This document shows, in pieces, positions 43,978-57,041 of a stretch of DNA of 64,000 nt; position 1 is the first letter of the stretch, and each line of letters begins with the position of its first letter. This DNA comes from Streptococcus mitis (GTDB lineage Bacteria; Bacillota; Bacilli; Lactobacillales; Streptococcaceae). The stretch spans positions 27,118 to 91,117 of the forward strand of contig JAWETZ010000004.1 of assembly GCA_032480835.1 (NCBI GenBank). Reading direction: 5' to 3'. The notes beneath the pieces were generated by a model. The model ran no database searches and was not told the origin of the DNA. It was given only the letters and a program-made list of their open reading frames with translations. The position numbers and the translations under genes are program-made.

Positions 43978-44463
43978 TTAATGTGATTGGCTTTCCAGCA
44001 TTTCCACATAGTCAATCGCGACACAGAGGGAAATGACTAGGTCTGCATAAGCGTCCTCCTGAACCGTTACGGTATAGGTAGAGGTCAGATGGAAGAGTTC
44101 CTTCTTAATTTCAGCAATCAGCTGATCGCGATCATCCAGCAATTTGAAATCCAAATCCCAGACATTGCCCTCGATACGAAGACCTAAATTATCAAACTCA
44201 TACTTATCTCGCCAGAAGGTCAACTTCTTACGAATGACAAAACTCGAGCCATCCCTAAGCTGAATCTCAAAACGAGGAAGCAAGGTCAAGATTTCTTTAC
44301 TGATCTGACCGACATGTTCACCATTAGCATCATAGATGGTAAAAGTTTTGGGAATCTTAAAAAATGATCCCTCCACCTGATAGGCGATTTCTCCCCTGTC
44401 ATCCTTGATAGCGAAGCGTTCGCCTCCAAAACGAAACTTTTGTTTGACAAGAAATGTTTTCAT
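43978..44463 (-). CDS. LURP-one-related/scramblase family protein
   Basis: F.I.D..G...Y.VEG pattern, LCVAID C-terminus; GGAGG RBS. Confidence 0.82.
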   Translation of the reverse strand: MKTFLVKQKFRFGGERFAIKDDRGEIAYQVEGSFFKIPKTFTIYDANGEHVGQISKEILTLLPRFEIQLRDGSSFVIRKKLTFWRDKYEFDNLGLRIEGNVWDLDFKLLDDRDQLIAEIKKELFHLTSTYTVTVQEDAYADLVISLCVAIDYVEMLESQSH

Positions 44464-44471
44464 CAACACCT

Positions 44472-44662
44472 CCAAAAAATCAAAAGACAAGCTCATATCA
44501 CGAAGGGCGAAAAACCGCGGTACCACCTTCATTCAATGAACTTGTCATTCTCTTATTTTTATTATGCAATTGTTAAATTGAGTAGCATGAGTTTCTAGCT
44601 TAGATGGCTCGCAGCACCGCCATTTCTCTGGACTAAGACAAGTGAAAATCAATTCTCAACTT
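44472..44662 (-). promoter_or_regulatory. T-box riboswitch (Ala) upstream of the LURP-alaS operon
   Basis: Minus strand AGAGA/GGTGCTGCGA stem I motifs, AAGGTGGTACCGCG T-box, terminator with U tract; candidate GCU specifier at 44586-44584. Confidence 0.88.
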
Positions 44663-44833
44663 TCTTATTATAACGTTTTTTTAAGCTTGCGTCAACTGGA
44701 AATCATCTTAACTAATAGTAGTGAGGTAGGAGTGAAGACCTTTTAAAAATTTAACTACTAGTTTCGAAATGTAAGTAGTAATATTTAATTTATTTCTAAA
44801 ACCTTTCTATCTAGCATAGCCCTCCAGCGCTGT

Positions 44834-45139
44834 TTAGTATGTACCCCCTATACTGATAAGATTCCACTCAGAGTAGCTTATCTTGAACAATTTTGGGGAT
44901 TTTGTGTCTTCGTCATACACTACGAGATAGTGCCCTTCATCATTCCAAAACTTGCCCAATACCTCAGCGTCTTTCAGTTCCACTTTCTGGTTCATATAGT
45001 CGCTTTTATACTCAATTTGTGGTGCATCTTTTACCCCAGCAGTAGAAAAACTACTACCAATAAAGATAAAAGCATAAAACAGCACCACAGCAATTCCCAA
45101 GAATTTAAAGATTTTATAATTTGTATTATTGTTTTCCAT
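44834..45139 (-). CDS. Small hypothetical membrane-anchored protein
   Basis: 101 aa, one N-terminal hydrophobic segment, AAAGGA RBS. Confidence 0.7.
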   Translation of the reverse strand: MENNNTNYKIFKFLGIAVVLFYAFIFIGSSFSTAGVKDAPQIEYKSDYMNQKVELKDAEVLGKFWNDEGHYLVVYDEDTKSPKLFKISYSEWNLISIGGTY

Positions 45140-45211: not shown

Positions 45212-46357
45212 CTAGATCATTAAGCTAACTTTTTCAATCACTTCTTGGATCTCATCTAGCGATACTAGAAACCATTCTTTAGGGACAAAGCTCTCTCCAT
45301 TTGGTGCTATTAATTCCATATCTAACTGCTTGTCTGCAAAATAATGATGAAGAGTCGTTTCTAATTTTCGAGCGCTGAAATTTTGAACCTCAAAACTAGC
45401 TACTAAACGGACAGGAGCATAAAGATAGGTTCCTTCTCTTTCTGCATTTGCTAACCGTTTTTCAATTCGATCCTGTGTAAAACCGATTTTATAGAGATTA
45501 CGGATGTTGGCAATTTGAGGATGGCTACTCAAGGATTTTACTACATAGATATATCCAGTTGTAATTCGTTCGCTTGGACTGATACCAGTCATCACATCTT
45601 CTATCAATTCTGTTACCATTCGTCCATGGCGCGTTCTATCGTGCAGATTAGATACAAAAGAGCGGAGTAAGGCCTTCTTATTTTCTGTACCATTTTCATA
45701 TACGAGATGAAGTTCAGCATTAGTATAACCATTCTTATCAGTGAAGTCTTCTCCTTTAGAAACAACATAAACCATTACTCCATTATCCACATAGAACATA
45801 TCAGGTTTAATTTCTTTTTCTTTTATCACATCAGACTTTCTGACTTGACGACGACCTTCACTAATTTCATCATGAACACGAGTAAATAATCCCTGATAAT
45901 CTTCAAAATTTCCCATCCGTTTACGTGTTCGTGTTTTATCCCGCGCTTGAATCGTTCGTTTATAACGTGAGACATCAAATAAAGATTTCTCAGCACTATT
46001 CACTGACTCAAACAATTCATCTGATAAAATATCTGTTAAACTAGCAGGACTTGAAATAGGGGGCTCGGACTCAACTATATCTATTTTTAGTAGCCCAAAT
46101 TCATCATAAGGTTCTAACTTTCGGATGCTATCAGGAGATTTTCTAATACCATTCAATCGAGAAAATAAACTGCGTTCTTTAATATTTCTAGACTTTTGTG
46201 GCTCTTGCCCATTATTTTCTCTCACCCAATCTATGATTTCTAAAAATTTCTCCACTTCGTGATCTATAACTATTTTTTTCATAGGTTTTAAAGGAGCTAT
46301 TAAATGTTCAAAATCAGAATCATTAAAAATGTCATTTAAGTTTTTGAAATCATTCAT
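45212..46357 (-). CDS. GIY-YIG/T5orf172-domain nuclease (YeeC-like)
   Basis: C-terminal GYIYV...LYKIGFT...EKRL...LETTLH...EWF signature. Confidence 0.82.
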   Translation of the reverse strand: MNDFKNLNDIFNDSDFEHLIAPLKPMKKIVIDHEVEKFLEIIDWVRENNGQEPQKSRNIKERSLFSRLNGIRKSPDSIRKLEPYDEFGLLKIDIVESEPPISSPASLTDILSDELFESVNSAEKSLFDVSRYKRTIQARDKTRTRKRMGNFEDYQGLFTRVHDEISEGRRQVRKSDVIKEKEIKPDMFYVDNGVMVYVVSKGEDFTDKNGYTNAELHLVYENGTENKKALLRSFVSNLHDRTRHGRMVTELIEDVMTGISPSERITTGYIYVVKSLSSHPQIANIRNLYKIGFTQDRIEKRLANAEREGTYLYAPVRLVASFEVQNFSARKLETTLHHYFADKQLDMELIAPNGESFVPKEWFLVSLDEIQEVIEKVSLMI

Positions 46358-48281
46358 TACCGCTCTCCATCTTCAGCTTCATCTGAGACAATTGTAACAA
46401 AGCATACGCAAGTCTCTGTTCGTACTTATCGTGACTTGATTTATCTGGATGACGACCATTTTCATTTAAAAATTGCTTAATTTGAGGATAAAGAATTAAC
46501 AGTTCTTCTTCAGAAAACTCCATCTTCTGACCATCCATATAGTCTTGTATTAGACGCAGAGTCGGAGCATCAATTTCACGTGATATAACTTCGTAAGCTC
46601 TCTGGAAAGGATTAATCTGATCAATTAAATCAATAGATAACTCATCAATATTCACAAATTTATCTGCCATTTTTAGAAAGTCTGTTTGCCCTACTCCCTC
46701 TTTCCGTTCAGCTGATTGAACTACCGATTGACTAATAAACTGTTGACGAACTTCTTCAACTTCAGCCCCACTTAAGTCAGGATAGATTTGTTTAATGATG
46801 GCTGGAATCATCTGCTTATTAATGACTTCTGCATCCGTTCCCGCAGCAATTGCAGTTTGGATACGCGGTTCTTGCAATATACTAGCACGTAAGTCATTCA
46901 AATCATTTTCTATGATATCCTTTGTTCTCTGTGTACTAGGCTCTTTTAAGCCTTTAACGAATATTTCGGCACCAGAAGATTTCTGGTCTTCTCGGTCTTT
47001 TCGTTTGAACTTGAAATTTGGCGCTAAAACAGACTCCATCAATAGACTAGCTGTAATGGCCTTCATAACATTATTCACAGCAAAGAAAACTTCATCATCT
47101 TGAGCATCTGGTTGAGAAATGAGATTGGTAAATTGAGCGTGTGACTTATTGGAACTATCGCGTGTTACTCGACCTATAATCTGAACAATTTCTGTTAGCG
47201 ACTGACGATAGCCAATCGTCAAAGCATACTCAGCATAAGGCCAGTCAAAACCTTCTTTAGCCATACCAAGTGCGATAATGATATCGAGATCATCTAAACT
47301 GGTCATTTTGTTTAGGTAATCCTGTACTTTTTCACGTCCTTCTTCTGTGACAAGGTCTGCAACTTTCAATACACGACCTGTTTCCTCAGTAACTAACCAT
47401 AATCCAGTCTTAGGATCTGGAACTGCTTGCCCTAGTTCATCTAAAATTCGGTCAACTTCATCATACTTATCCTTGGTTGATTCACCTGAGTTTACATTGG
47501 GAATATGAATGATAGTTTTCTTACTCGTGTCCAGTACTTCGTGCAAGGCATCTGTGTAACGACCACGATAAAAGTTATAACCCATGGCAAAACTTTTCAG
47601 ATATTTGTACCCCTCCAACTGTTCATAATAAGTATAGGATACCTTATCAAATTTTTGCTCATCTTCAGGTGCCAAAATGGGTACAGAATCTCCACGGAAA
47701 TAAGACCCTGTCATAGCTACTACATGGGCTGTTGAATTGGCTAATATGTTTCTTAAGGCATTTCCTAAAACTGAATTATCATCTTGAGATACATGATGAA
47801 ATTCATCGATAGCTAGAAGAACATCATTAAAATCACTATCAGCTAGCTGTTCAAAGGCAAAACGCAAGGTGGCATGCGTACAGATTAAAGCTCTATCATC
47901 AGGAGACTCTGAATGCATAAAGTCTACAAACTGTTTTACCTTACTTTTACTGCTCCCTTGTTCAGTCAAATTATTTTTGGGAAGAACTTCCCAATCCCAG
48001 TAAAAACCATAATCTGTCAATTTTGTTGAACGAAACGATTTTCCAATAGATCTTTCTGGAACAGCTATAATAGCTTTTTTCAGACCTTGAGCATGTAATT
48101 TATCAAGAGCAATAAACATCAAAGCTCTCGACTTACCAGATGCAGGAGGCGCCTTAATCAATAAGTGTTGAGAAGTTCTCTTAGCATATACCCGCTCCTG
48201 CATTTCACGCATACCAAGTGCATTATTTGATTGACTAGCACCTGTACCATTGTAATTAATTTCAAATATATTTGAGGTCAT
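46350..48281 (-). CDS. SF2 DEAD/DEAH-type helicase/ATPase (YeeB-like)
   Basis: APPASGKS, IDEFHH, MTGS, KEGFD, QIIGRVTR. Confidence 0.85.
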   Translation of the reverse strand: MTSNIFEINYNGTGASQSNNALGMREMQERVYAKRTSQHLLIKAPPASGKSRALMFIALDKLHAQGLKKAIIAVPERSIGKSFRSTKLTDYGFYWDWEVLPKNNLTEQGSSKSKVKQFVDFMHSESPDDRALICTHATLRFAFEQLADSDFNDVLLAIDEFHHVSQDDNSVLGNALRNILANSTAHVVAMTGSYFRGDSVPILAPEDEQKFDKVSYTYYEQLEGYKYLKSFAMGYNFYRGRYTDALHEVLDTSKKTIIHIPNVNSGESTKDKYDEVDRILDELGQAVPDPKTGLWLVTEETGRVLKVADLVTEEGREKVQDYLNKMTSLDDLDIIIALGMAKEGFDWPYAEYALTIGYRQSLTEIVQIIGRVTRDSSNKSHAQFTNLISQPDAQDDEVFFAVNNVMKAITASLLMESVLAPNFKFKRKDREDQKSSGAEIFVKGLKEPSTQRTKDIIENDLNDLRASILQEPRIQTAIAAGTDAEVINKQMIPAIIKQIYPDLSGAEVEEVRQQFISQSVVQSAERKEGVGQTDFLKMADKFVNIDELSIDLIDQINPFQRAYEVISREIDAPTLRLIQDYMDGQKMEFSEEELLILYPQIKQFLNENGRHPDKSSHDKYEQRLAYALLQLSQMKLKMESGNE

Positions 48282-51070
48282 TTCGCTTCCTTTTCTGTCA
48301 TTTCTTTATACAGGTTCAATAAGACACTGAGCCTTTCTTCATCTGATTCAAAAGGCTTTTGCTGGTAGGCACGTTCTACGATACCATCAATTTTTTCATG
48401 TGCTTGACGAAGACGTTCGTTCATCGGTTTATTGGCTCCACCGTACAATTCAGCCAAGGTTCCACCTTCTTCTTCTCGAACATCTAGCATTTCAAAAACA
48501 GCTTCTTCAAGCATATTTTTCCGACTATCTGAAAGTTCTGGGATTGGGAATGTATTATAAACCAGTCCAGCTGAATAACTATATCGAGTTTCTAATTTCC
48601 CACCGATCGCTTGAAACCATTTTATATGCATTTTAGAAACAAGACATCCAAGTAGCCAAATTGGAGTATCATACACAATATAGCAACGATTTGAAATAAT
48701 TGTATCGTCTCCCACAAATCCCATTGGTATATAATCTCTATCTTCTGAAGTAACAGCAGGAACTAACAGTTGAAACTTCCCTTCTATTTTCCCCTTAGAA
48801 AACATATCATCCCATTCACCACGTTGAACAAATTTCCATGGTGTGGATGCAGTTTCTCTTGTTCCAGCAGCCTTAGAATTCAGGCGTTCTTGCCTTACAT
48901 TTTCAAATAATTGATGGAATTCCTGGATCTTATCTAATTTAGTATATTCATCTTGATCAATCCAAATAGTATATCTAAAATTTCCATTGATATACTCATC
49001 TGCTCCAATATACTTTTTAAAATACACTTCAGTTTCAGGATATCTTTGAACTAATTGATTTTTATCATCATTTGTCAGTATTAGATATTTACTTCTTGGC
49101 ATATTCCCAAAGACTATTTTTGGAAAATTATTTAACTTCTCTGAATCATTGTGATTAGATACAATAATATCATCTGCAAAAGCTAGATAGGGATTTATAT
49201 TCTTTCCATAACTCTCTCCCTTATCACTATATATAATTCTTTTCTTATCATTTTTATTTGAAAATCCAATGATAGTAACTGTAACCCCTGCATTATGGGC
49301 CGCGCTATTATTCCATTTAAACGATTGATATGCAAAGGAAATTTGGCCATATTGTAGAAGAACACTCCACAAAATTGAAACTTGCTCACCTTGATTTATT
49401 GAATTTGTTGTTACAAAAGCATATTGAGCATTTTTACCATAAATAAGGTGAGTTGCCTTATAAAACCATCCCGAAATATAATCTAATTTTTTAGAAGAAA
49501 TTTCTGAACAAATCACATTTTCTAGTTCCTTCTTTTGTTCCAAGGTCATTTTTTTAGAGCCTATATACGGCGGATTCCCAAATATATAAACTTCATCATC
49601 TGCCTTAGCATTCAAAACAGTTGTCCAGTCAATTCTTAGGGCATTCCCACAAACGATATTCCCAGCTTCTCTTAAGGGGAGTAGCCTTGGATGGACATCA
49701 GCAAGTGCTTCTTCCATCTCCACATTCATCTGGTGTTCCGCTATATACAAGGATAACCTTGCTACTTCATGAGCGAAATCATCCAATTCAATTCCTGAAA
49801 ATTGGGATAGAGAAATCTTAGATGCATCAGCAATCAATTCTCCTTGATAAACAGCTTTTTCATTTAAGGATTCACGAATTTCACGCTGTTTGATTAAGAT
49901 ATTAATTTCTAAACGACGAAGTTCTTTATAAGTAATGATGAGGAAATTTCCAGAACCACAAGCAGGGTCTAAAAACTTGATAGAGGCCATACGAGTGAGC
50001 AACTCTTCTAACTTAGGTAAGATTTGTCGCAATTCCTTGCGACGATGTTCCTCGCTAAAGTCACCACCTCCTATATAGTAGTCAGCTCGTTCTTCTAATT
50101 CCGTAAATGCTGCTCGTAAATTATCTAAAAACAGTGGTTTGATGACCTTCATAATATTGGGCACGCTAGTATAGTGCATACCCGATGTTGATCTTGCTTC
50201 TGCATTTGCCACGGTTTGAATCATGGAGCCCAAAATATCTGGATTGATTTCATTCCAGTTTAGCAATTCCCCTGCTTCAATGAGTAATTGACGAGTTCTT
50301 TTATTGAAAATAAGGTCATGATGTGGCTCTGAAAAAAGCTTACCATTTACATAGGGAAAATCTGATAACCACGACTCCAAATCCTGACGACTAAATTCAG
50401 GCATATCTAAAACAGTAAATAGTTTTCTAACACACTCATTCAAGTCAGAACCATCTTCAGATGTCCTCATCTTAATAACATTTGTGAAAGCTCCCTTGGA
50501 GATGATATTTGTATCTTCTGCAAATAGTAGAAAAAGAACACGAATCAAAAATAGATTAAATGATTTACCGTCAGTTTCAGTAATGGCAAGTTCAGGATTG
50601 ATAGAAATTAGTTCATCATAAAGTTTGGTGAAACGCTCTGCCGCTTTTACATCAGCAGGGTTTTCCTTATCATAATCAATCTTTTCAATACCATTCCAAG
50701 GTAAGAAGAAATCACAATGGGCTGGTAAATCATTAAAAGAAATTGCTAGAGTCAGTCCTGTCTGTGTATCCTTTGCATATAATTCTTGAAAATCTGTTGT
50801 AATAATAAATCGAGATTTACGAACCTGACCATCCAACTCTTTATCAATCTCAGTCAGAGCAAGTAATGGCTGATTTTCAACTTTACGAAAATACAATCTG
50901 TTTTTTATTATAAAATCATCAGATGCCACTTTACTTGCTCTTGTTATGGTCGTTTTAGTAATGTCAAACAATGAAACAAAATCAATAATGAATGTCGATT
51001 TATTAAGATTCTCTACTAAAACCTTGGTTCTATCCTCAATCTCAGTGATATTTAATAACTTTTTAGCCAT
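48278..51070 (-). CDS. MmeI-like N6-adenine DNA methyltransferase with fused specificity domain (YeeA/DnmA-like)
   Basis: FPYVNGKLF, INPDILGSM, HYTSVPNI, FLDPACGSGNF (motif I), GNPPY (motif IV), TNSINQGEQV, YNTFP, TLAELY. Confidence 0.88.
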   Translation of the reverse strand: MAKKLLNITEIEDRTKVLVENLNKSTFIIDFVSLFDITKTTITRASKVASDDFIIKNRLYFRKVENQPLLALTEIDKELDGQVRKSRFIITTDFQELYAKDTQTGLTLAISFNDLPAHCDFFLPWNGIEKIDYDKENPADVKAAERFTKLYDELISINPELAITETDGKSFNLFLIRVLFLLFAEDTNIISKGAFTNVIKMRTSEDGSDLNECVRKLFTVLDMPEFSRQDLESWLSDFPYVNGKLFSEPHHDLIFNKRTRQLLIEAGELLNWNEINPDILGSMIQTVANAEARSTSGMHYTSVPNIMKVIKPLFLDNLRAAFTELEERADYYIGGGDFSEEHRRKELRQILPKLEELLTRMASIKFLDPACGSGNFLIITYKELRRLEINILIKQREIRESLNEKAVYQGELIADASKISLSQFSGIELDDFAHEVARLSLYIAEHQMNVEMEEALADVHPRLLPLREAGNIVCGNALRIDWTTVLNAKADDEVYIFGNPPYIGSKKMTLEQKKELENVICSEISSKKLDYISGWFYKATHLIYGKNAQYAFVTTNSINQGEQVSILWSVLLQYGQISFAYQSFKWNNSAAHNAGVTVTIIGFSNKNDKKRIIYSDKGESYGKNINPYLAFADDIIVSNHNDSEKLNNFPKIVFGNMPRSKYLILTNDDKNQLVQRYPETEVYFKKYIGADEYINGNFRYTIWIDQDEYTKLDKIQEFHQLFENVRQERLNSKAAGTRETASTPWKFVQRGEWDDMFSKGKIEGKFQLLVPAVTSEDRDYIPMGFVGDDTIISNRCYIVYDTPIWLLGCLVSKMHIKWFQAIGGKLETRYSYSAGLVYNTFPIPELSDSRKNMLEEAVFEMLDVREEEGGTLAELYGGANKPMNERLRQAHEKIDGIVERAYQQKPFESDEERLSVLLNLYKEMTEKEAK

Positions 51071-51087
51071 TAGATACCTCCAAGAAA

Positions 51088-51119
51088 CGCAAAAAGCCTA
51101 CTGGATTTTCAGTAGGTTT
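51088..51119 (-). terminator. Terminator-like hairpin in the methyltransferase leader
   Basis: CCTACTG-AAAATC-CAGTAGG followed by CTTTTT, ending about 15 nt before the GGAGG RBS. Confidence 0.6.
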
Positions 51120-51150
51120 CAATCTATATTTTTTGCATTTTTTTATTAGG

Positions 51151-51192
51151 TTATATATATATATATATATGCATTTGCGTAGTCTGACTCAT
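51151..51192 (-). CDS. Putative leader uORF MSQTTQMHIYIYI spanning the TA tract
   Basis: AAAGGAG RBS 6 nt before ATG at 51192; TAA at 51153-51151. Confidence 0.55.
   Translation of the reverse strand: MSQTTQMHIYIYI
51152..51170. repeat. (TA)9T dinucleotide microsatellite
   Basis: TATATATATATATATATAT read directly. Confidence 0.95.
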
Positions 51193-51261
51193 TTTGAACT
51201 CCTTTGGAATTAAATTTTCAGAGATGCTGTAAACAATACTAATAACTCTCACCCTAAAACT

Positions 51262-51270
51262 ATTATACCA
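51262..51270 (-). promoter_or_regulatory. Extended -10 promoter for the island operon
   Basis: TGGTATAAT on minus strand, just downstream of the potD terminator. Confidence 0.65.
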
Positions 51271-51288
51271 TGATTTCTATTTTTTCTA

Positions 51289-51317
51289 AAAAACGAACCA
51301 GCTGACTGATTCGTTTT
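51289..51317 (-). terminator. Terminator of potABCD
   Basis: AAAACGAA..TTCGTTTT inverted repeat after the potD stop. Confidence 0.65.
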
Positions 51318-51331
51318 CATCCGTTTAGCTC

Positions 51332-52402
51332 CTACTTCCGATACATTTTAAATTGTAGGAAGAGGTCGCTGTATTTGCCTGTCCATTTATGGTTAAATTT
51401 CTCGTAAACTTCTAGGTGTTTCATGGTTTCAGCATCTGGATAGAAGGCCTTGTCTTCTTTTTTCTCCTCTGGGAGCAGTTCCTTAGCTGGTAGGTTTGGA
51501 GTTGAATAGCCGACATACTCTGCATTTTTGAGAGCATTTTCAGGTTTCAACATAAAATTGATAAAGGCATAGGCGGCATCTTGGTTTTTCACGGTTTTTG
51601 GAATGACCATATTGTCAAACCAAAGGTTGCTGGCCTCAGTCGGTACCACATAGCGTAGGTTTTCATTTTTTTCTAGCATTTGGCTGGCTTCACCAGAGAA
51701 GGTCACTCCGATAGCAGCGTTATTCTGAATCATGTAACCCTTCATCTCGTCGGCAACGATGGCCTTGATATTTGGAGTCAATTTATAGAGCTTATCCACT
51801 GTTTCTTCCAACTGCTGGGTATCCTTGGAGTTGAGGCTGTAGCCGAGGGAGTTGAGACCCAGTCCCAATACCTCACGCGCCCCATCAAAGAGCATGATAG
51901 AGTTCTTATACTCTGGTTTCCAGAGGTCGTCCCAATGCTCAGGAGCCTCATCTACCATGGTTTCATTGTAGACAATTCCTAAGGTTCCCCAGAAGTAAGG
52001 GATAGAGAATTTATTGCCTGGGTCAAAGGACTGGTTGAGAAACTCTGGTCCGATATTTTCAAGACCTTCAAGTTTTGAATAATCAAGCGGTACCAAGAGG
52101 TCTTCGTCCTTCATCTTGTTAATCATGTATTCACTAGGAATGGCAATATCGTAGGTCGTTCCACCCTGCTTGATCTTGGTATACATGGCTTCATTGGAGT
52201 CAAAAGTCTCGTACTGGACTTGGATTCCTGTTTCTTCTGTGAACTGAGTCAAGAGTTCAGGATCTATATAGTCCCCCCAGTTGTAGATAACCAGTTTTTG
52301 ACTATCTCGGCTATTGATTTTACTATCTAAATGCGTCGCAATTCCCCACAAGACGAGGATAATGGCTACAATTCCTGCTAAAAATGAATAGAGTTTTTTC
52401 AT
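51332..52402 (-). CDS. potD: Spermidine/putrescine ABC transporter substrate-binding protein
   Basis: YNWGDYID, FDSNE, PSEY, PYFWG, WFDNMVIPK. Confidence 0.95.
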   Translation of the reverse strand: MKKLYSFLAGIVAIILVLWGIATHLDSKINSRDSQKLVIYNWGDYIDPELLTQFTEETGIQVQYETFDSNEAMYTKIKQGGTTYDIAIPSEYMINKMKDEDLLVPLDYSKLEGLENIGPEFLNQSFDPGNKFSIPYFWGTLGIVYNETMVDEAPEHWDDLWKPEYKNSIMLFDGAREVLGLGLNSLGYSLNSKDTQQLEETVDKLYKLTPNIKAIVADEMKGYMIQNNAAIGVTFSGEASQMLEKNENLRYVVPTEASNLWFDNMVIPKTVKNQDAAYAFINFMLKPENALKNAEYVGYSTPNLPAKELLPEEKKEDKAFYPDAETMKHLEVYEKFNHKWTGKYSDLFLQFKMYRK

Positions 52403-53172
52403 GCTTGCTCCTCCTTCTCACGTGAGATAAAGTAATATCCAACAACTAGGATAATACTAAAGAGAAAGACGAGGGCAGACAGGGCATTGATTTCTAAGGA
52501 AATCCCCTTGCGAGCACGAGAGTAAATCTCGACTGATAGGGTTGAAAAGCCATTTCCCGTTACAAAGAAGGTCACAGCAAAGTCATCTAGCGAATAAGTG
52601 AAGGCCATGAAATAACCTGCAATGATAGACGGAGTCAGGTAAGGAAGCATAATTTCCTTGAACATCTGAAATTGACTAGCTCCCAAGTCATAGGCCGCAT
52701 GAATCATGTCACCGTTCATTTCCTTGAGTCGAGGCAAGACCATCAAGACCACGATAGGAATGGAGAAGGCCACGTGACTAGATAGAACGGTCAAAAAGCC
52801 AAGTGAAAACTTGAGTTGGGTAAAGAGAATCAAGAAGCTGGCACCAATCATAACATCAGGCGCAACCATGAGGATATTATTGAGTGAAAGAAAGGCTTCT
52901 TGGTATCTCTTGCGAGACTGGTAAATGTAAATAGCTCCAAAAGTCCCGATAATGGTCGCTATCAAGGCTGACAGAAAGGCCAAGAAAAAGGTCTGAGTCA
53001 CAATCAACATAAGGCGACCATCGCCAAACATAGTTTTAAAATGGCTCAGGCTGAAGCCTGTAAAGCTATTCATGTCGTTTCCTGCATTAAAGGCGTAACC
53101 AATCAAGTAAAAAATCGGCAGGTAGAGGACAAGAAAGACCAGTCCCAGATAAAGATTGGCAAATTTTTTCAT
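52399..53172 (-). CDS. potC: Spermidine/putrescine ABC permease
   Basis: LYLPI, AAYDLGA, SLDDF. Confidence 0.94.
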   Translation of the reverse strand: MKKFANLYLGLVFLVLYLPIFYLIGYAFNAGNDMNSFTGFSLSHFKTMFGDGRLMLIVTQTFFLAFLSALIATIIGTFGAIYIYQSRKRYQEAFLSLNNILMVAPDVMIGASFLILFTQLKFSLGFLTVLSSHVAFSIPIVVLMVLPRLKEMNGDMIHAAYDLGASQFQMFKEIMLPYLTPSIIAGYFMAFTYSLDDFAVTFFVTGNGFSTLSVEIYSRARKGISLEINALSALVFLFSIILVVGYYFISREKEEQA

Positions 53173-55113: not shown

Positions 55114-55272
55114 TTGTCATTTATTCCTTCTTTTTCATAGATTAACAGATCAGGGCTCTGTCAGGCCGCAACTACCTCGTGTAGGAGATTGAACTGCCTA
55201 CATTCTTCTGCACTAACGATAGGCTTTCACCCCCTTTCCATGATATAGCAGCAGCTTTTCAACTAAAGTGCC

Positions 55273-56178
55273 CTACTTGCTTTCACCCAAGATCCGGACT
55301 TCTCTTTCAAGCGTGATACCTGAGTGTTCCTTGACTTTTTCAATCACAGACTCAATCAAGTCTTCGTAGTCTTTTGCCGTTCCATCTGCGACATTGATCA
55401 TAAATCCTGCGTGCTTTTCAGACACTTCAACACCACCGATACGATAGCCTTTCAAGCCAGCTTCTGAAATTAATTGACCTGCAAAATGGCCTACTGGACG
55501 CTTAAAGACCGAACCACAAGATGGGTATTCCAAAGGTTGTTTGAGTTCACGTAGGTGCGTCAAGCGGTCCATTTCCTGCTTGATAACCTGATGGCTTCCT
55601 GGAGCAAGGGCAAATTTAGCTGACAAGACAACTGCACCAGACTCCTGAATGGCTGAGTGGCGATAACCAAAAGCCAAGTCCTTGGCAGACAAGGTTTCGA
55701 TTTCTCCATCCTTGGTCAAGACCTTACAAGACTGCAAGATGTGGGCAATCTCACCACCATAGGCACCTGCATTCATAAAGACAGCACCACCGACACTTCC
55801 AGGAATACCACAAGCAAACTCAAAGCCAGTCAAACTATGACGAAGGGCAATGCGAGTTGTCTCAATTAAGTTAGCACCAGCTTCAGCTTCGATGGTATAG
55901 CCATCAACTGAAACATTATTGAGCTTGTCACACAAGATGACAAATCCACGAATCCCACCGTCACGAACGATAATGTTGCTGGCATTTCCAAGAACCATCC
56001 AAGGAATATTTTCTTGATTGGCAAATTTAACAACGCGAGCCAACTCAAAACGATTTCGTGGAAAGACCAAATAATCGGCCTCTCCACCTACTTTTGTATA
56101 ACTATAGCTATGCAAGGGTTCCTTGAAACGGATATCAATCCCTTCTAAGATTTCAAGCATGTTTTCTTTTACTGACAT
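55273..56178 (-). CDS. murB: UDP-N-acetylenolpyruvoylglucosamine reductase
   Basis: [39 protein letters not shown]. Confidence 0.97.
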
Positions 56179-56288
56179 GACACTCTCCCTTTTACAAAAT
56201 TCATTCCATTATACCATTTTTAAGACCATTTGACGACCCTAAAAAAATCTTGGGCTTCTTTTAAACAAAAAAGAGGTTTCCCCTCTTT

Positions 56289-57041
56289 TTATGATTTTTT
56301 GCAAAAGATAGCCTTTGTTCCATAGGCAACCAGAACAAGTTCAAGTGCTAGGACAACTTCAACCAAGACTGGATTGGTCAACCAGCCAACTTGAGCAAGA
56401 GATGGTGCCAGGTCAAAGAAGGCATGTAGTCCATAGGCCGCTAGGAGATAAATCCATTTCTTCTGGCGAACAGCTTGGTAAACCCAAACAGTCAATAGTA
56501 ATTGGAAACCTAGCGCCAAGATTCTCTCAAAACCAAGCAAATAAATCTGCCAGTCTGATAGCGACTGAATAGTTTTCAACATATTTTCAGACAGCAATTG
56601 CATAACCTGTGGATTTTGCGTTTGAACTGCTGAGAGAACGAAGTAGAGATTAAGCAAACTAGTAAGACCTAGGAAAATCAACTCCAAGCCACCATGCCCC
56701 AATCCATAAGCCAAGGCGTCTGCCTTTTCCAAACTTCTCTTTTTCTCCATCCATTTGAAGAAAATAAGGCGAGCTGTTTCCTCAAAAAATGCTGCCATGG
56801 CTAGGCCATAGATGATATAGACAAGCGGATGATCTTGCAAGAGGGCAATACTACCGTCTTTTTGAGGATGCAAAACCAAGATATGTACCAGTTTTTCCAA
56901 AAGCTGTGAAGAGACAAAGAAGGCGACAGCCCCCAAACCCAAGACAGCTAGATTAATCTGGTATTTCTTTTTTGCATACCAAATGCTTCCTATCAAGAAA
57001 GCCAGCAACAGCACCATGGTAATGATAATATGAATGGTCAT
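56289..57041 (-). CDS. YhfC-family intramembrane glutamic/metallo-protease
   Basis: FEETAR, GLGHGGLE, ERI, LHAFFD. Confidence 0.85.
   Translation of the reverse strand: MTIHIIITMVLLLAFLIGSIWYAKKKYQINLAVLGLGAVAFFVSSQLLEKLVHILVLHPQKDGSIALLQDHPLVYIIYGLAMAAFFEETARLIFFKWMEKKRSLEKADALAYGLGHGGLELIFLGLTSLLNLYFVLSAVQTQNPQVMQLLSENMLKTIQSLSDWQIYLLGFERILALGFQLLLTVWVYQAVRQKKWIYLLAAYGLHAFFDLAPSLAQVGWLTNPVLVEVVLALELVLVAYGTKAIFCKKS

Follow-up and report, generated by a model that had tools for sequence, protein, structure and literature searches.

We analysed a stretch of 64,000 nucleotides (nt) from Streptococcus mitis (assembly GCA_032480835.1, contig JAWETZ010000004.1, positions 27,118 to 91,117 of the forward strand; hereafter the window, whose own numbering is used throughout), and in it the leader of a three-gene operon that is read from the minus strand and encodes a DNA methyltransferase (MTase) of the MmeI family, a helicase and a protein with a nuclease-like domain, in the manner of the DnmA/YeeABC-type loci. 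Between the promoter of this operon and the start codon of the MTase gene lies a short open reading frame (ORF) that runs into a TA dinucleotide tract and is followed by a terminator-like hairpin. An earlier note on this DNA had proposed that slippage in the tract switches the operon through the leader ORF; our comparisons of this leader with those of related strains, of homologous operons and of published systems point to a probable phase-variable attenuation switch.

Results

Anatomy of the leader

The features of the leader and of the operon are collected in Table 1. The extended -10, the ribosome-binding site, the leader ATG, the tract, the hairpin, the GGAGG and the MTase ATG were all recovered in the minus-strand reading exactly where the earlier note had placed them. 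A promoter scan returned the TGGTATAAT promoter, with 10 of 12 matches and its TG present, as the sole promoter-like site on the minus strand of the leader, and its sequence is unchanged in all eight leaders that were aligned. The region of the leader Shine-Dalgarno (SD) sequence contains the motif AAAGGAGTTCAAAATG, which was found in 21 of 21 mitis-type genomes. The stop codon of the latent leader-ORF extension overlaps the MTase start by 8 nt and ends 34 nt past the 3' arm of the hairpin.

Table 1. Features of the leader and the operon, in window coordinates.
Feature	Position	Strand	Remarks
potD terminator hairpin and T-run	51288..51317	-	minus-strand sequence; potD is the upstream core gene
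Promoter	51262..51290	-	-35 TTTAGA (51290-51285), 17-nt spacer, extended -10 TGGTATAAT (51270-51262); promoter scan
Leader-ORF SD, AAAGGAG	51199..51205	-	6 nt 5' of the leader ATG
Leader-ORF ATG	51192-51190	-	
Leader ORF, present short form	51151..51192	-	MSQTTQMHIYIYI and stop; 13 codons; TAA 51153-51151
Repeat tract (AT)9A	51152..51170	-	(TA)9T on the plus strand; in the leader ORF, codons 8-13
Latent leader-ORF extension	51063..51151	-	28 open codons between the tract and TAA 51065-51063, hairpin included
Terminator-like hairpin and U-run	51091..51116	-	CCTACTG-AAAATC-CAGTAGG (51116-51097), CTTTTT (51096-51091)
MTase SD, GGAGG	51077..51081	-	
MTase ATG	51070	-	
MmeI-family (type IIG/IIL-like, DnmA/YeeA-like) N6-adenine DNA MTase	48278..51070	-	930 aa
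DEAD/ResIII-type helicase (YeeB-like)	46350..48281	-	start overlaps the MTase stop by 4 nt
T5orf172/MUG113 (GIY-YIG-like) domain protein (YeeC-like)	45212..46357	-	overlaps the helicase gene by 8 nt

A terminator scan classed the hairpin as terminator-like; its 7-bp stem has a folding free energy (dG) of -10.3 kcal/mol with z values of -2.75 to -3.1, and one or two of 200 shuffled sequences fold as well. In the minimum free energy (MFE) fold of the whole leader, a single-sequence fold that served as the test for a trp-type arrangement, the terminator hairpin is kept and no competing antiterminator helix appears. In the same fold, the A-rich stretch at 51129-51144 is complementary to the U-run/GCGU 3' of the hairpin. 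An Rfam scan of positions 50000-52500 at E values up to 10 placed no family on the leader and gave five chance-level matches elsewhere. The hairpin and the MTase ATG are 26 nt apart and the promoter scan found no site between them, which rules out a promoter 3' of the hairpin, one of the findings that the earlier note had named as speaking against its proposal. Across the whole 2.06-Mb assembly there are just five dinucleotide repeats of at least six units, all of them TA, and for this reason we do not regard the tract as a chance feature.

Tract length and natural frame alleles

Tract length was compared by pooling eight genomes from a sample of the genus with a scan of genome contigs, which together gave 21 distinct mitis-group genomes with the leader. 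One of them (L032, which is G321:C24) has an assembly gap, a run of N, inside the tract, leaving 20 resolved species-representative genomes. Loci L083-L091 duplicate genomes already included and were left out of the counts, as were the metagenome contigs L112 and L117, in which homopolymer errors are evident (one has an A too many before the leader ATG, the other two too many in the MTase start).

The tract is uninterrupted in all 20 genomes and its number of units (n) ranges from 6 to 16, as the earlier note had expected of strains carrying the island: n is 6 in two genomes, 7 in two, 8 in three, 9 in five, 10 in three, 11 in two, and 13, 15 and 16 in one each. In the alignment of eight genomes the tract is the sole indel in the island part of the leader. 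Among 27 sequences, the 20 genomes and seven metagenome contigs, seven pairs show no substitution in 620 flanking positions, and six of these seven differ in n (9/8, 15/7, 15/9, 7/9, 16/6 and 14/13). Because flanks that are identical accompany tracts that are not, tract length evidently changes much faster than point substitutions accumulate. The tract is also hard to assemble, given the run of N in L032 and the fact that both RNA contigs of the set X17, described below, end there; this is no evidence of heterogeneity.

Alleles of both kinds, those in the long (ON) frame and those in a short (OFF) frame, occur in nature. The long frame corresponds to n mod 3 = 1 and is read by seven of the 20 genomes (n = 7, 7, 10, 10, 10, 13 and 16). 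With n = 10 it yields, residue for residue, the 43-aa peptide that the earlier note had predicted, MSQTTQMHIYIYIYNLIKKCKKYRLKPTENPVGFLRFLEVSNG, whose TAA overlaps the MTase start. The remaining 13 genomes stop directly after the tract, at TAA or at ACC-TAA; the peptide of the n = 8 allele ends in ...IYIYIT, at the ACC TAA that had likewise been predicted for it. The claim that both short frames stop before the hairpin holds, with one small correction: the stop of the n mod 3 = 2 frame ends 29 nt 5' of the hairpin and the present one (n = 9) ends 34 nt 5' of it. In shuffled sequences the mitis-type long frame is open with P = 0.075, and the other two frames hold four and three stops.

The A7 and A6 runs within the long frame (51129-51144) vary too, with A6 in L039 and A6 and A5 in L042, and L034 has a T-to-A change in the same stretch; changes of this kind shift the end of the long frame. 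The MTase gene of L039 (which is G400:C57) is interrupted by a TAA, its match ending at about residue 635, and the long frame of its leader is also shifted at a poly-A run, so this locus in G400 may be decaying. The MTase gene of G024:C4 also carries an internal stop, a TGA.

Leaders of homologous operons

The DNA upstream of homologous MTase genes was compared at 52 genome-contig loci, in a sample of 398 genomes of the family and at 80 metagenome loci. Besides the mitis-type leader (type A), five further leader types, each represented by one to five sequences, share a common plan in which an SD and ATG are followed by a repeat, a hairpin with a U-run, and a long frame that ends on the MTase start codon. 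Type A' (L046 and L119; MTase 73% identical) has (AT)5 and the long frame, and its hairpin is degraded. Type B comprises the S. equinus/S. infantarius records L066 and L082 and the contigs L126, L127 and L132, with an MTase about 52% identical and at a different chromosomal site; it reads AAGGAG-ATG, (TA)n, the hairpin CCTGTCA/TGGCAGG with CUUUUU, and ATGGCTAA, where n is 3, 8, 12, 3 and 9 in the order of the sequences just named and four of the five are in the long frame. In type C (G024; MTase 56% identical) the leader ORF is MNSSFLPSFLIS and a stop, with (TTCC)5, and one unit fewer would open the long frame. Type D is a Pseudolactococcus record (L075/L103; MTase 50% identical) with (AGCCAAC)3, in frame, and a 44-aa peptide ending on ATGGTTAG. 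Type E comes from G216, in another genus of the family (MTase 65% identical), and has (GCAGA)14; in one frame, 85 codons without a stop lead from this repeat across the hairpin to a TGA that overlaps the MTase ATG.

In every type the repeat, with a unit of 2, 4, 5 or 7 nt and thus never a multiple of 3, lies inside an ORF with its own SD and ATG. The frame that reaches the MTase start is open in all six types, while the other two frames carry one to 13 stops; the probability of an open frame in shuffled sequences is 0.075, 0.094, 0.037, 0.068, 0.107 and 0.007 for the six, and the open frame is the feature by which the earlier note had proposed that homologous leaders be judged. The stop of the long frame overlaps the MTase start as ATGGCTAA in types A, B and C, as ATGGTTAG/TAATG in type D and as TGATG in type E, and the OFF-frame stops are found, throughout, at a distance of 27-41 nt on the 5' side of the hairpin. 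The hairpin and U-run are retained in five of the six types: the stems differ in sequence (CCTACTG/CAGTAGG, CCTGTCA/TGGCAGG, CCTGGTAA/TTGCCAGG, and longer stems in L103 and L092) and the stem-loop with its U-run keeps its shape, at a dG of -9.9 to -17.4 kcal/mol. Leaders with short tracts are all in the ON frame, namely L066 and L127 with (TA)3, L046 and L119 with (AT)5, and L103 with three heptamers. The types are only partly independent, as A, B, C and E share the motif ...TTTTTGCGT 3' of the hairpin. This recurrence of the design across lineages is the strongest evidence for the putative switch.

Among the homologues examined from Bacillaceae, Enterococcus, S. suis and Veillonella no such leader was found; their genes are preceded instead by a plain promoter, an upstream helix-turn-helix (HTH) gene or palindromic operators. 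At L054 (E. cecorum) and L063 (S. oralis) the place of the repeat leader is taken by a small HTH (XRE-like) gene that extends to the MTase start, an arrangement that looks like controller-protein regulation of the same operon. The S. suis-type loci L071, L072, L074, L097 and L098 have a palindromic motif, ...CATGATATACTACGTATACCATGGGTTTGACTTTCAGTCAAACCC..., 5' of the MTase gene, in three tandem copies in L071.

RNA libraries

Two raw RNA runs (X21 and X24) and two sets of RNA contigs (X17 and X15) were compared with the region. X21 has zero reads on it, and the reads of X24 fall on potD only, with 90-99% likeness and loose ends at the island junction, as from a strain without the island. The region is covered in X17 by two contigs, both of which break at the tract, with mean depths of 1056 (potD and the 5' part of the leader) and 13 (the post-tract leader and the MTase gene); these depths are whole-contig means and carry no information on termination. 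X15 has one contig of 217 nt over 50870-51086, at a depth of 2.2.

The operon, the island and the neighbouring genes

The Pfam domains MmeI_N, MmeI_hel, MmeI_Mtase, MmeI_TRD and MmeI_C span residues 22-926 of the MTase, which PADLOC matches to REase_MTase_IIG at 9.6e-291, filed as a Type IIG restriction endonuclease-MTase. A phmmer comparison with MmeI (PDB 5hr4) gave E = 1.6e-154, with the alignment beginning at query residue 86, which corresponds to MmeI residue 108. An alignment of 12 MTase sequences, consulted for the N-terminal PD-ExK endonuclease motif of MmeI, has no invariant acidic residue between positions 45 and 86. For the helicase and the T5orf172 protein PADLOC gave weak matches only (PbeA, Cas3 and PD-Lambda-1), and therefore no named system was assigned; NCBIfam yielded just sub-threshold matches to BREX PglX and Dnd, and no name was obtained from it.

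Within the available flanking DNA a helicase match lies 3' of the MTase gene in 17 of the 17 loci compared, joined in 14 of them by a T5orf172 match. In about half of these loci (L109, L110, L111, L054, L067, L070, L071 and L073) the MTase and helicase matches are about 0.7-1.1 kb apart, which leaves space for an extra gene; in the window, the mitis-type loci, those of the S. equinus/infantarius type (L066 and L082) and some others, no more than a few bases separate them.

The gene order on the minus strand is murB, potABCD, the three-gene block, two small genes and alaS. The small genes between the operon and alaS (43978-45139) are a 101-aa ORF, which has no match in Pfam, PADLOC or NCBIfam, and a gene for a 184-aa LURP-one-related/Tubby-like protein. 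A 570-nt query was matched in some part by 88 of 199 genomes of the genus, and eight of these, including that of the window, carry the full leader and the 5' end of the MTase gene. Because most of the other 80 match only query bases 1-54/84, that is, the end of potD and its terminator, the leader is, as far as these matches indicate, part of an inserted block that begins directly after the potD terminator.

Related repeat loci

Two further TA repeats of the same genome lie outside the window. At G000:C9:55148-55171 a (TA)12 tract stands directly 3' of an SD and ATG (ATG ATC AAG AAA TTA CAC AC-(TA)12). The frame of which this is the 5' end goes on as a 453-aa ORF (55262-56623, plus strand), and the arrangement resembles the classical repeat switches that lie within the ORF, here that of a secreted or membrane protein. 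The intergenic (AT)11 at G000:C2:5499-5520 is the loop between the two 14-bp arms of a perfect inverted repeat (GTTCCACCGCTTGC ... GCAAGCGGTGGAAC), and long TA tracts like it are matched in many genomes of the genus. Elsewhere in the family, (GCAGA)n of 15-65 units is found directly 3' of an SD and ATG at no fewer than nine loci in eight other genomes from four genera (L193-L201), some of these modules being followed by a hairpin and U-run. In most of them, and also in the MTase leader of G216 (L109:8776-8800), a TTGACA-N16-19-TAnnAT-like pair overlaps the SD/ATG, so that the ATG is possibly untranscribed.

Discussion

Comparison with known systems

The pilus operons pil1 and pil3 of S. gallolyticus carry (GCAGA)n in a leader-peptide ORF with a stem-loop terminator 3' of it (Danne et al., 2014; PMC3894217). 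In that study, most pil1 transcripts terminate when a short peptide is made whose stop lies at least 28 nt before the hairpin, and out-of-frame changes in the repeat give longer peptides that stop in or after the hairpin, the ribosome then blocking formation of the terminator. The mechanism was proven there with SD/ATG, three-stop and terminator-deletion mutants, the deletion giving 11-fold more transcript, and the switch, which operates at a rate of about 5e-3 per cell per generation, is also functional in Lactococcus lactis (PMC3894217). The earlier note had cautioned that transcription and translation are loosely coupled in some Firmicutes; that worry is removed because the pil1 switch has been proven experimentally in the same genus and also works in L. 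lactis (PMC3894217).

The leader in the window resembles those of pil1 and pil3, as they are described, in its promoter, in its leader ORF with SD and ATG, in a repeat unit that is not a multiple of 3 and whose copy number varies between strains, in the stop of the short form some 28-40 nt before a stem-loop with a U-run, and in a long form that reaches into or past that stem-loop. Both belong to the genus Streptococcus, and the MTase operon of G216 uses the same GCAGA unit as pil1. The spacing of 27-41 nt between OFF stop and hairpin in all the MTase leader types agrees with the experimental rule of at least 28 nt from pil1 (PMC3894217). Every feature that a pil1-type mechanism would demand of the sequence is present in the window leader, the terminator being judged in silico.

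The two systems differ in several respects. The repeat is a TA dinucleotide of 6-16 units here and a pentamer of 13-22 units or more in pil1; the distance from the leader ATG to the ATG of the first gene is about 120 nt against about 400 nt; the hairpin is weaker here; and a single frame out of three gives a long peptide, against pil1, where it was lengthened by both out-of-frame changes. Unlike in pil1, the stop of the long frame falls exactly at the start codon of the first gene, which makes translational coupling possible. The cargo is a methyltransferase-helicase-nuclease operon, read from the sequence alone, in place of pili that were studied by experiment.

Phasevarions and other phase-variable systems of restriction-modification (R-M) carry their repeats within the ORF of Type III mod and Type I hsd genes, and the Type IIG gene cj0031 of C. 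jejuni has a poly-G tract (PMC5909438, PMC7383803, PMC4889913). The locus in the window would be alike in that a repeat tract stochastically switches a DNA methyltransferase, and the hypervariability of the tract, together with a geometry that fits a switch, is consistent with such repeat-driven ON/OFF control. In the systems that these sources present, however, the enzyme is truncated through a repeat that is part of the gene for methylation or specificity, or of its promoter, whereas here the ORF of the enzyme is intact and the repeat sits in a separate leader ORF.

The DnmA/YeeA proteins have been described as homologues of MmeI that lack its PD-ExK motif and are encoded beside helicase and nuclease-like genes, and DnmA of B. 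subtilis as forming N6-methyladenine (m6A) at GACGAG and affecting promoter activity, with no restriction detected in transformation (Nye et al., 2020; PMC7261158; on the B. subtilis system see also Morgan et al., 2009; PMC2731913). The operon in the window matches that published description in its MmeI-family architecture and in the conserved synteny of the helicase and T5orf172/nuclease-like genes downstream. The Bacillaceae homologues that we examined (L048, L052 and others) have a plain promoter with no repeat or leader ORF, unlike the window. In C. difficile, an invertible element of cwpV creates a terminator in the 5' leader, a phase-variable premature termination that is alike in its outcome and differs in that it proceeds by site-specific inversion, without repeat slippage or a leader peptide.

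In the open-access literature of PMC and bioRxiv we found no account of such a leader switch for a methyltransferase, an R-M system, a defence system or a YeeABC-type locus. The novelty suggested by the earlier note therefore needs to be divided: the mechanism itself is already published (PMC3894217), and its use at a yeeABC/DnmA-type locus, its dinucleotide unit and its recurrence across the family with swapped units appear to be unreported.

Proposed model of the switch

We propose, with a probability that we put at roughly 70%, that a repeat/leader-ORF attenuation switch of the pil1 type controls this DnmA/YeeABC-type operon, and that the present genome, with n = 9, is in the OFF or basal state. 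We favour this reading because the tract is hypervariable, because the architecture recurs across lineages and because pil1 and pil3 provide an experimental precedent within the genus; the same three considerations lend support to the slippage logic that the earlier note had put forward.

Transcription would begin at the TGGTATAAT promoter, and ribosomes would load at the AAAGGAG-ATG and translate into the (AT)n tract, where slipped-strand mispairing would shift n by whole units and cycle the exit frame through three states. When n mod 3 is 0 or 2 the peptide would end at TAA or ACC-TAA, 34 or 29 nt before the hairpin, the hairpin and U-run would fold, and most transcripts would end there, which would be the OFF or basal state. 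When n mod 3 is 1 the ribosomes would cross both arms of the hairpin, block termination and stop at the TAA 8 nt inside the MTase ORF, which would be the ON state, and in this state translation of the leader may also couple into the MTase. The overlap of stop and start in all the types suggests such an added component of translational coupling, which has no counterpart in pil1 as described. We infer termination at the hairpin, its relief by translation, switching within a clone and an effect on the methylome, on defence or on both.

It is to our mind an open toss whether repeat-in-leader-ORF attenuators form a conserved modular cassette of DnmA/YeeABC-type operons across the Streptococcaceae, in which the units (TA, TTCC, AGCCAAC and GCAGA) would have been swapped several times. 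What such a cassette would keep, with equally balanced odds, is the distance of the OFF stop, the terminator and the overlap of a stop with the start codon of the MTase gene, and it may exert dual control by antitermination and translational coupling.

Several observations weigh against the attenuation switch. The hairpin is modest, with 7 bp and a dG of -10.3 kcal/mol against -18.7 kcal/mol for pil1, and may therefore give high read-through and a small dynamic range. The MTase has a strong GGAGG of its own, and its translation need not depend on the leader ORF. The X17 contig of depth 13 is unbroken from just past the tract through the hairpin into the MTase gene, so some read-through RNA, or contaminating DNA, exists. 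In L042 and L039 the long frame is broken or shortened by poly-A changes. Conservation among the mitis-type leaders, which are closely related, is by itself weak evidence, and each of the other types contributes only one to five sequences to the comparison across lineages. The ON fraction of 7/20, finally, equals the neutral-drift expectation of 1/3, so the state frequencies give no argument for function, and the ON:OFF ratio was dropped as an uninformative sign of selection.

The weakness of the hairpin and the RNA contig that spans it into the MTase gene would also be expected of a purely translational switch, in which the tract sets the frame, the hairpin is ineffective as a terminator and the long frame acts by termination-reinitiation coupling or by unfolding the MTase start; the precise overlap of stop and start in types A to E, unneeded for antitermination alone, points the same way. 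In a variant of this explanation, ribosomes crossing the MTase SD might lower MTase translation. We nevertheless consider it unlikely, since the hairpin and U-run are kept in five of the six types despite differing stems, which suits a terminator, the MTase gene is equipped with its own strong SD, and the effect in pil1 is transcriptional, the transcript rising 11-fold on deletion of the terminator (PMC3894217).

Quite unlikely, in our estimation, is a neutral microsatellite, a mutational hotspot in an AT-rich 5' untranslated region with no regulatory effect, beside which the open frame and the hairpin would be incidental. The ratio of seven ON to 13 OFF genomes is what neutrality predicts, and the mitis-type leaders are too alike for their conservation to carry weight, but the complete arrangement is seen again, with four different repeat units, ahead of homologous operons that occupy different chromosomal sites, its long frame is open every time (per-type P = 0.007-0.107), the OFF stops always fall 27-41 nt before the hairpin, and the tracts are uninterrupted in 20 of 20 genomes in a setting where only five dinucleotide repeats of six units or more exist genome-wide.

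In the hif genes of H. influenzae, (TA)n serves as a promoter spacer and acts through its length. A comparable frame-independent effect here, in which the tract would adjust transcription or the stability of the mRNA by way of DNA or RNA structure or by spacing a second promoter, is highly improbable: alternating AT can adopt unusual DNA structures, the MFE fold contains a weak self-paired RNA hairpin of the tract and the repeat of G216 adjoins a perfect TTGACA-17-TATAAT, but the units of 2, 4, 5 and 7 nt lie in an SD-ATG ORF in every type and are never multiples of 3, and a second promoter with the tract as its spacer is ruled out by the promoter scan, which finds no promoter-like -35/-10 pair flanking the tract, and by a tract-length range of 13-33 nt, far beyond that of a workable spacer.

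Significance

If the attenuation switch operates as proposed, a mechanism of one species and one class of genes, the pili of S. gallolyticus, would extend to DNA methyltransferase/defence operons. Operons with this leader occur in abundant oral commensals and in relatives of the pneumococcus; the bovis/equinus group and a lactococcus-like genus have them too, though with repeat units of another kind. Surveys of phase-variable methyltransferases seek repeats inside mod and hsd ORFs, which a leader-ORF switch escapes, so that the number of phasevarions may be underestimated. Should the leaders indeed form a conserved cassette, there would have been long-term selection for stochastic ON/OFF expression of the operon, which would then be a phasevarion or a bet-hedged defence system missed by ORF-based repeat surveys. 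In B. subtilis the DnmA-YeeB-YeeC system influences gene expression, with no restriction detected in transformation (PMC7261158). Stochastic ON/OFF control of such a system would suggest a cost-benefit trade-off of the kind that is typical of defence systems or epigenetic regulators, for the testing of which the natural ON-frame and OFF-frame alleles are ready-made.

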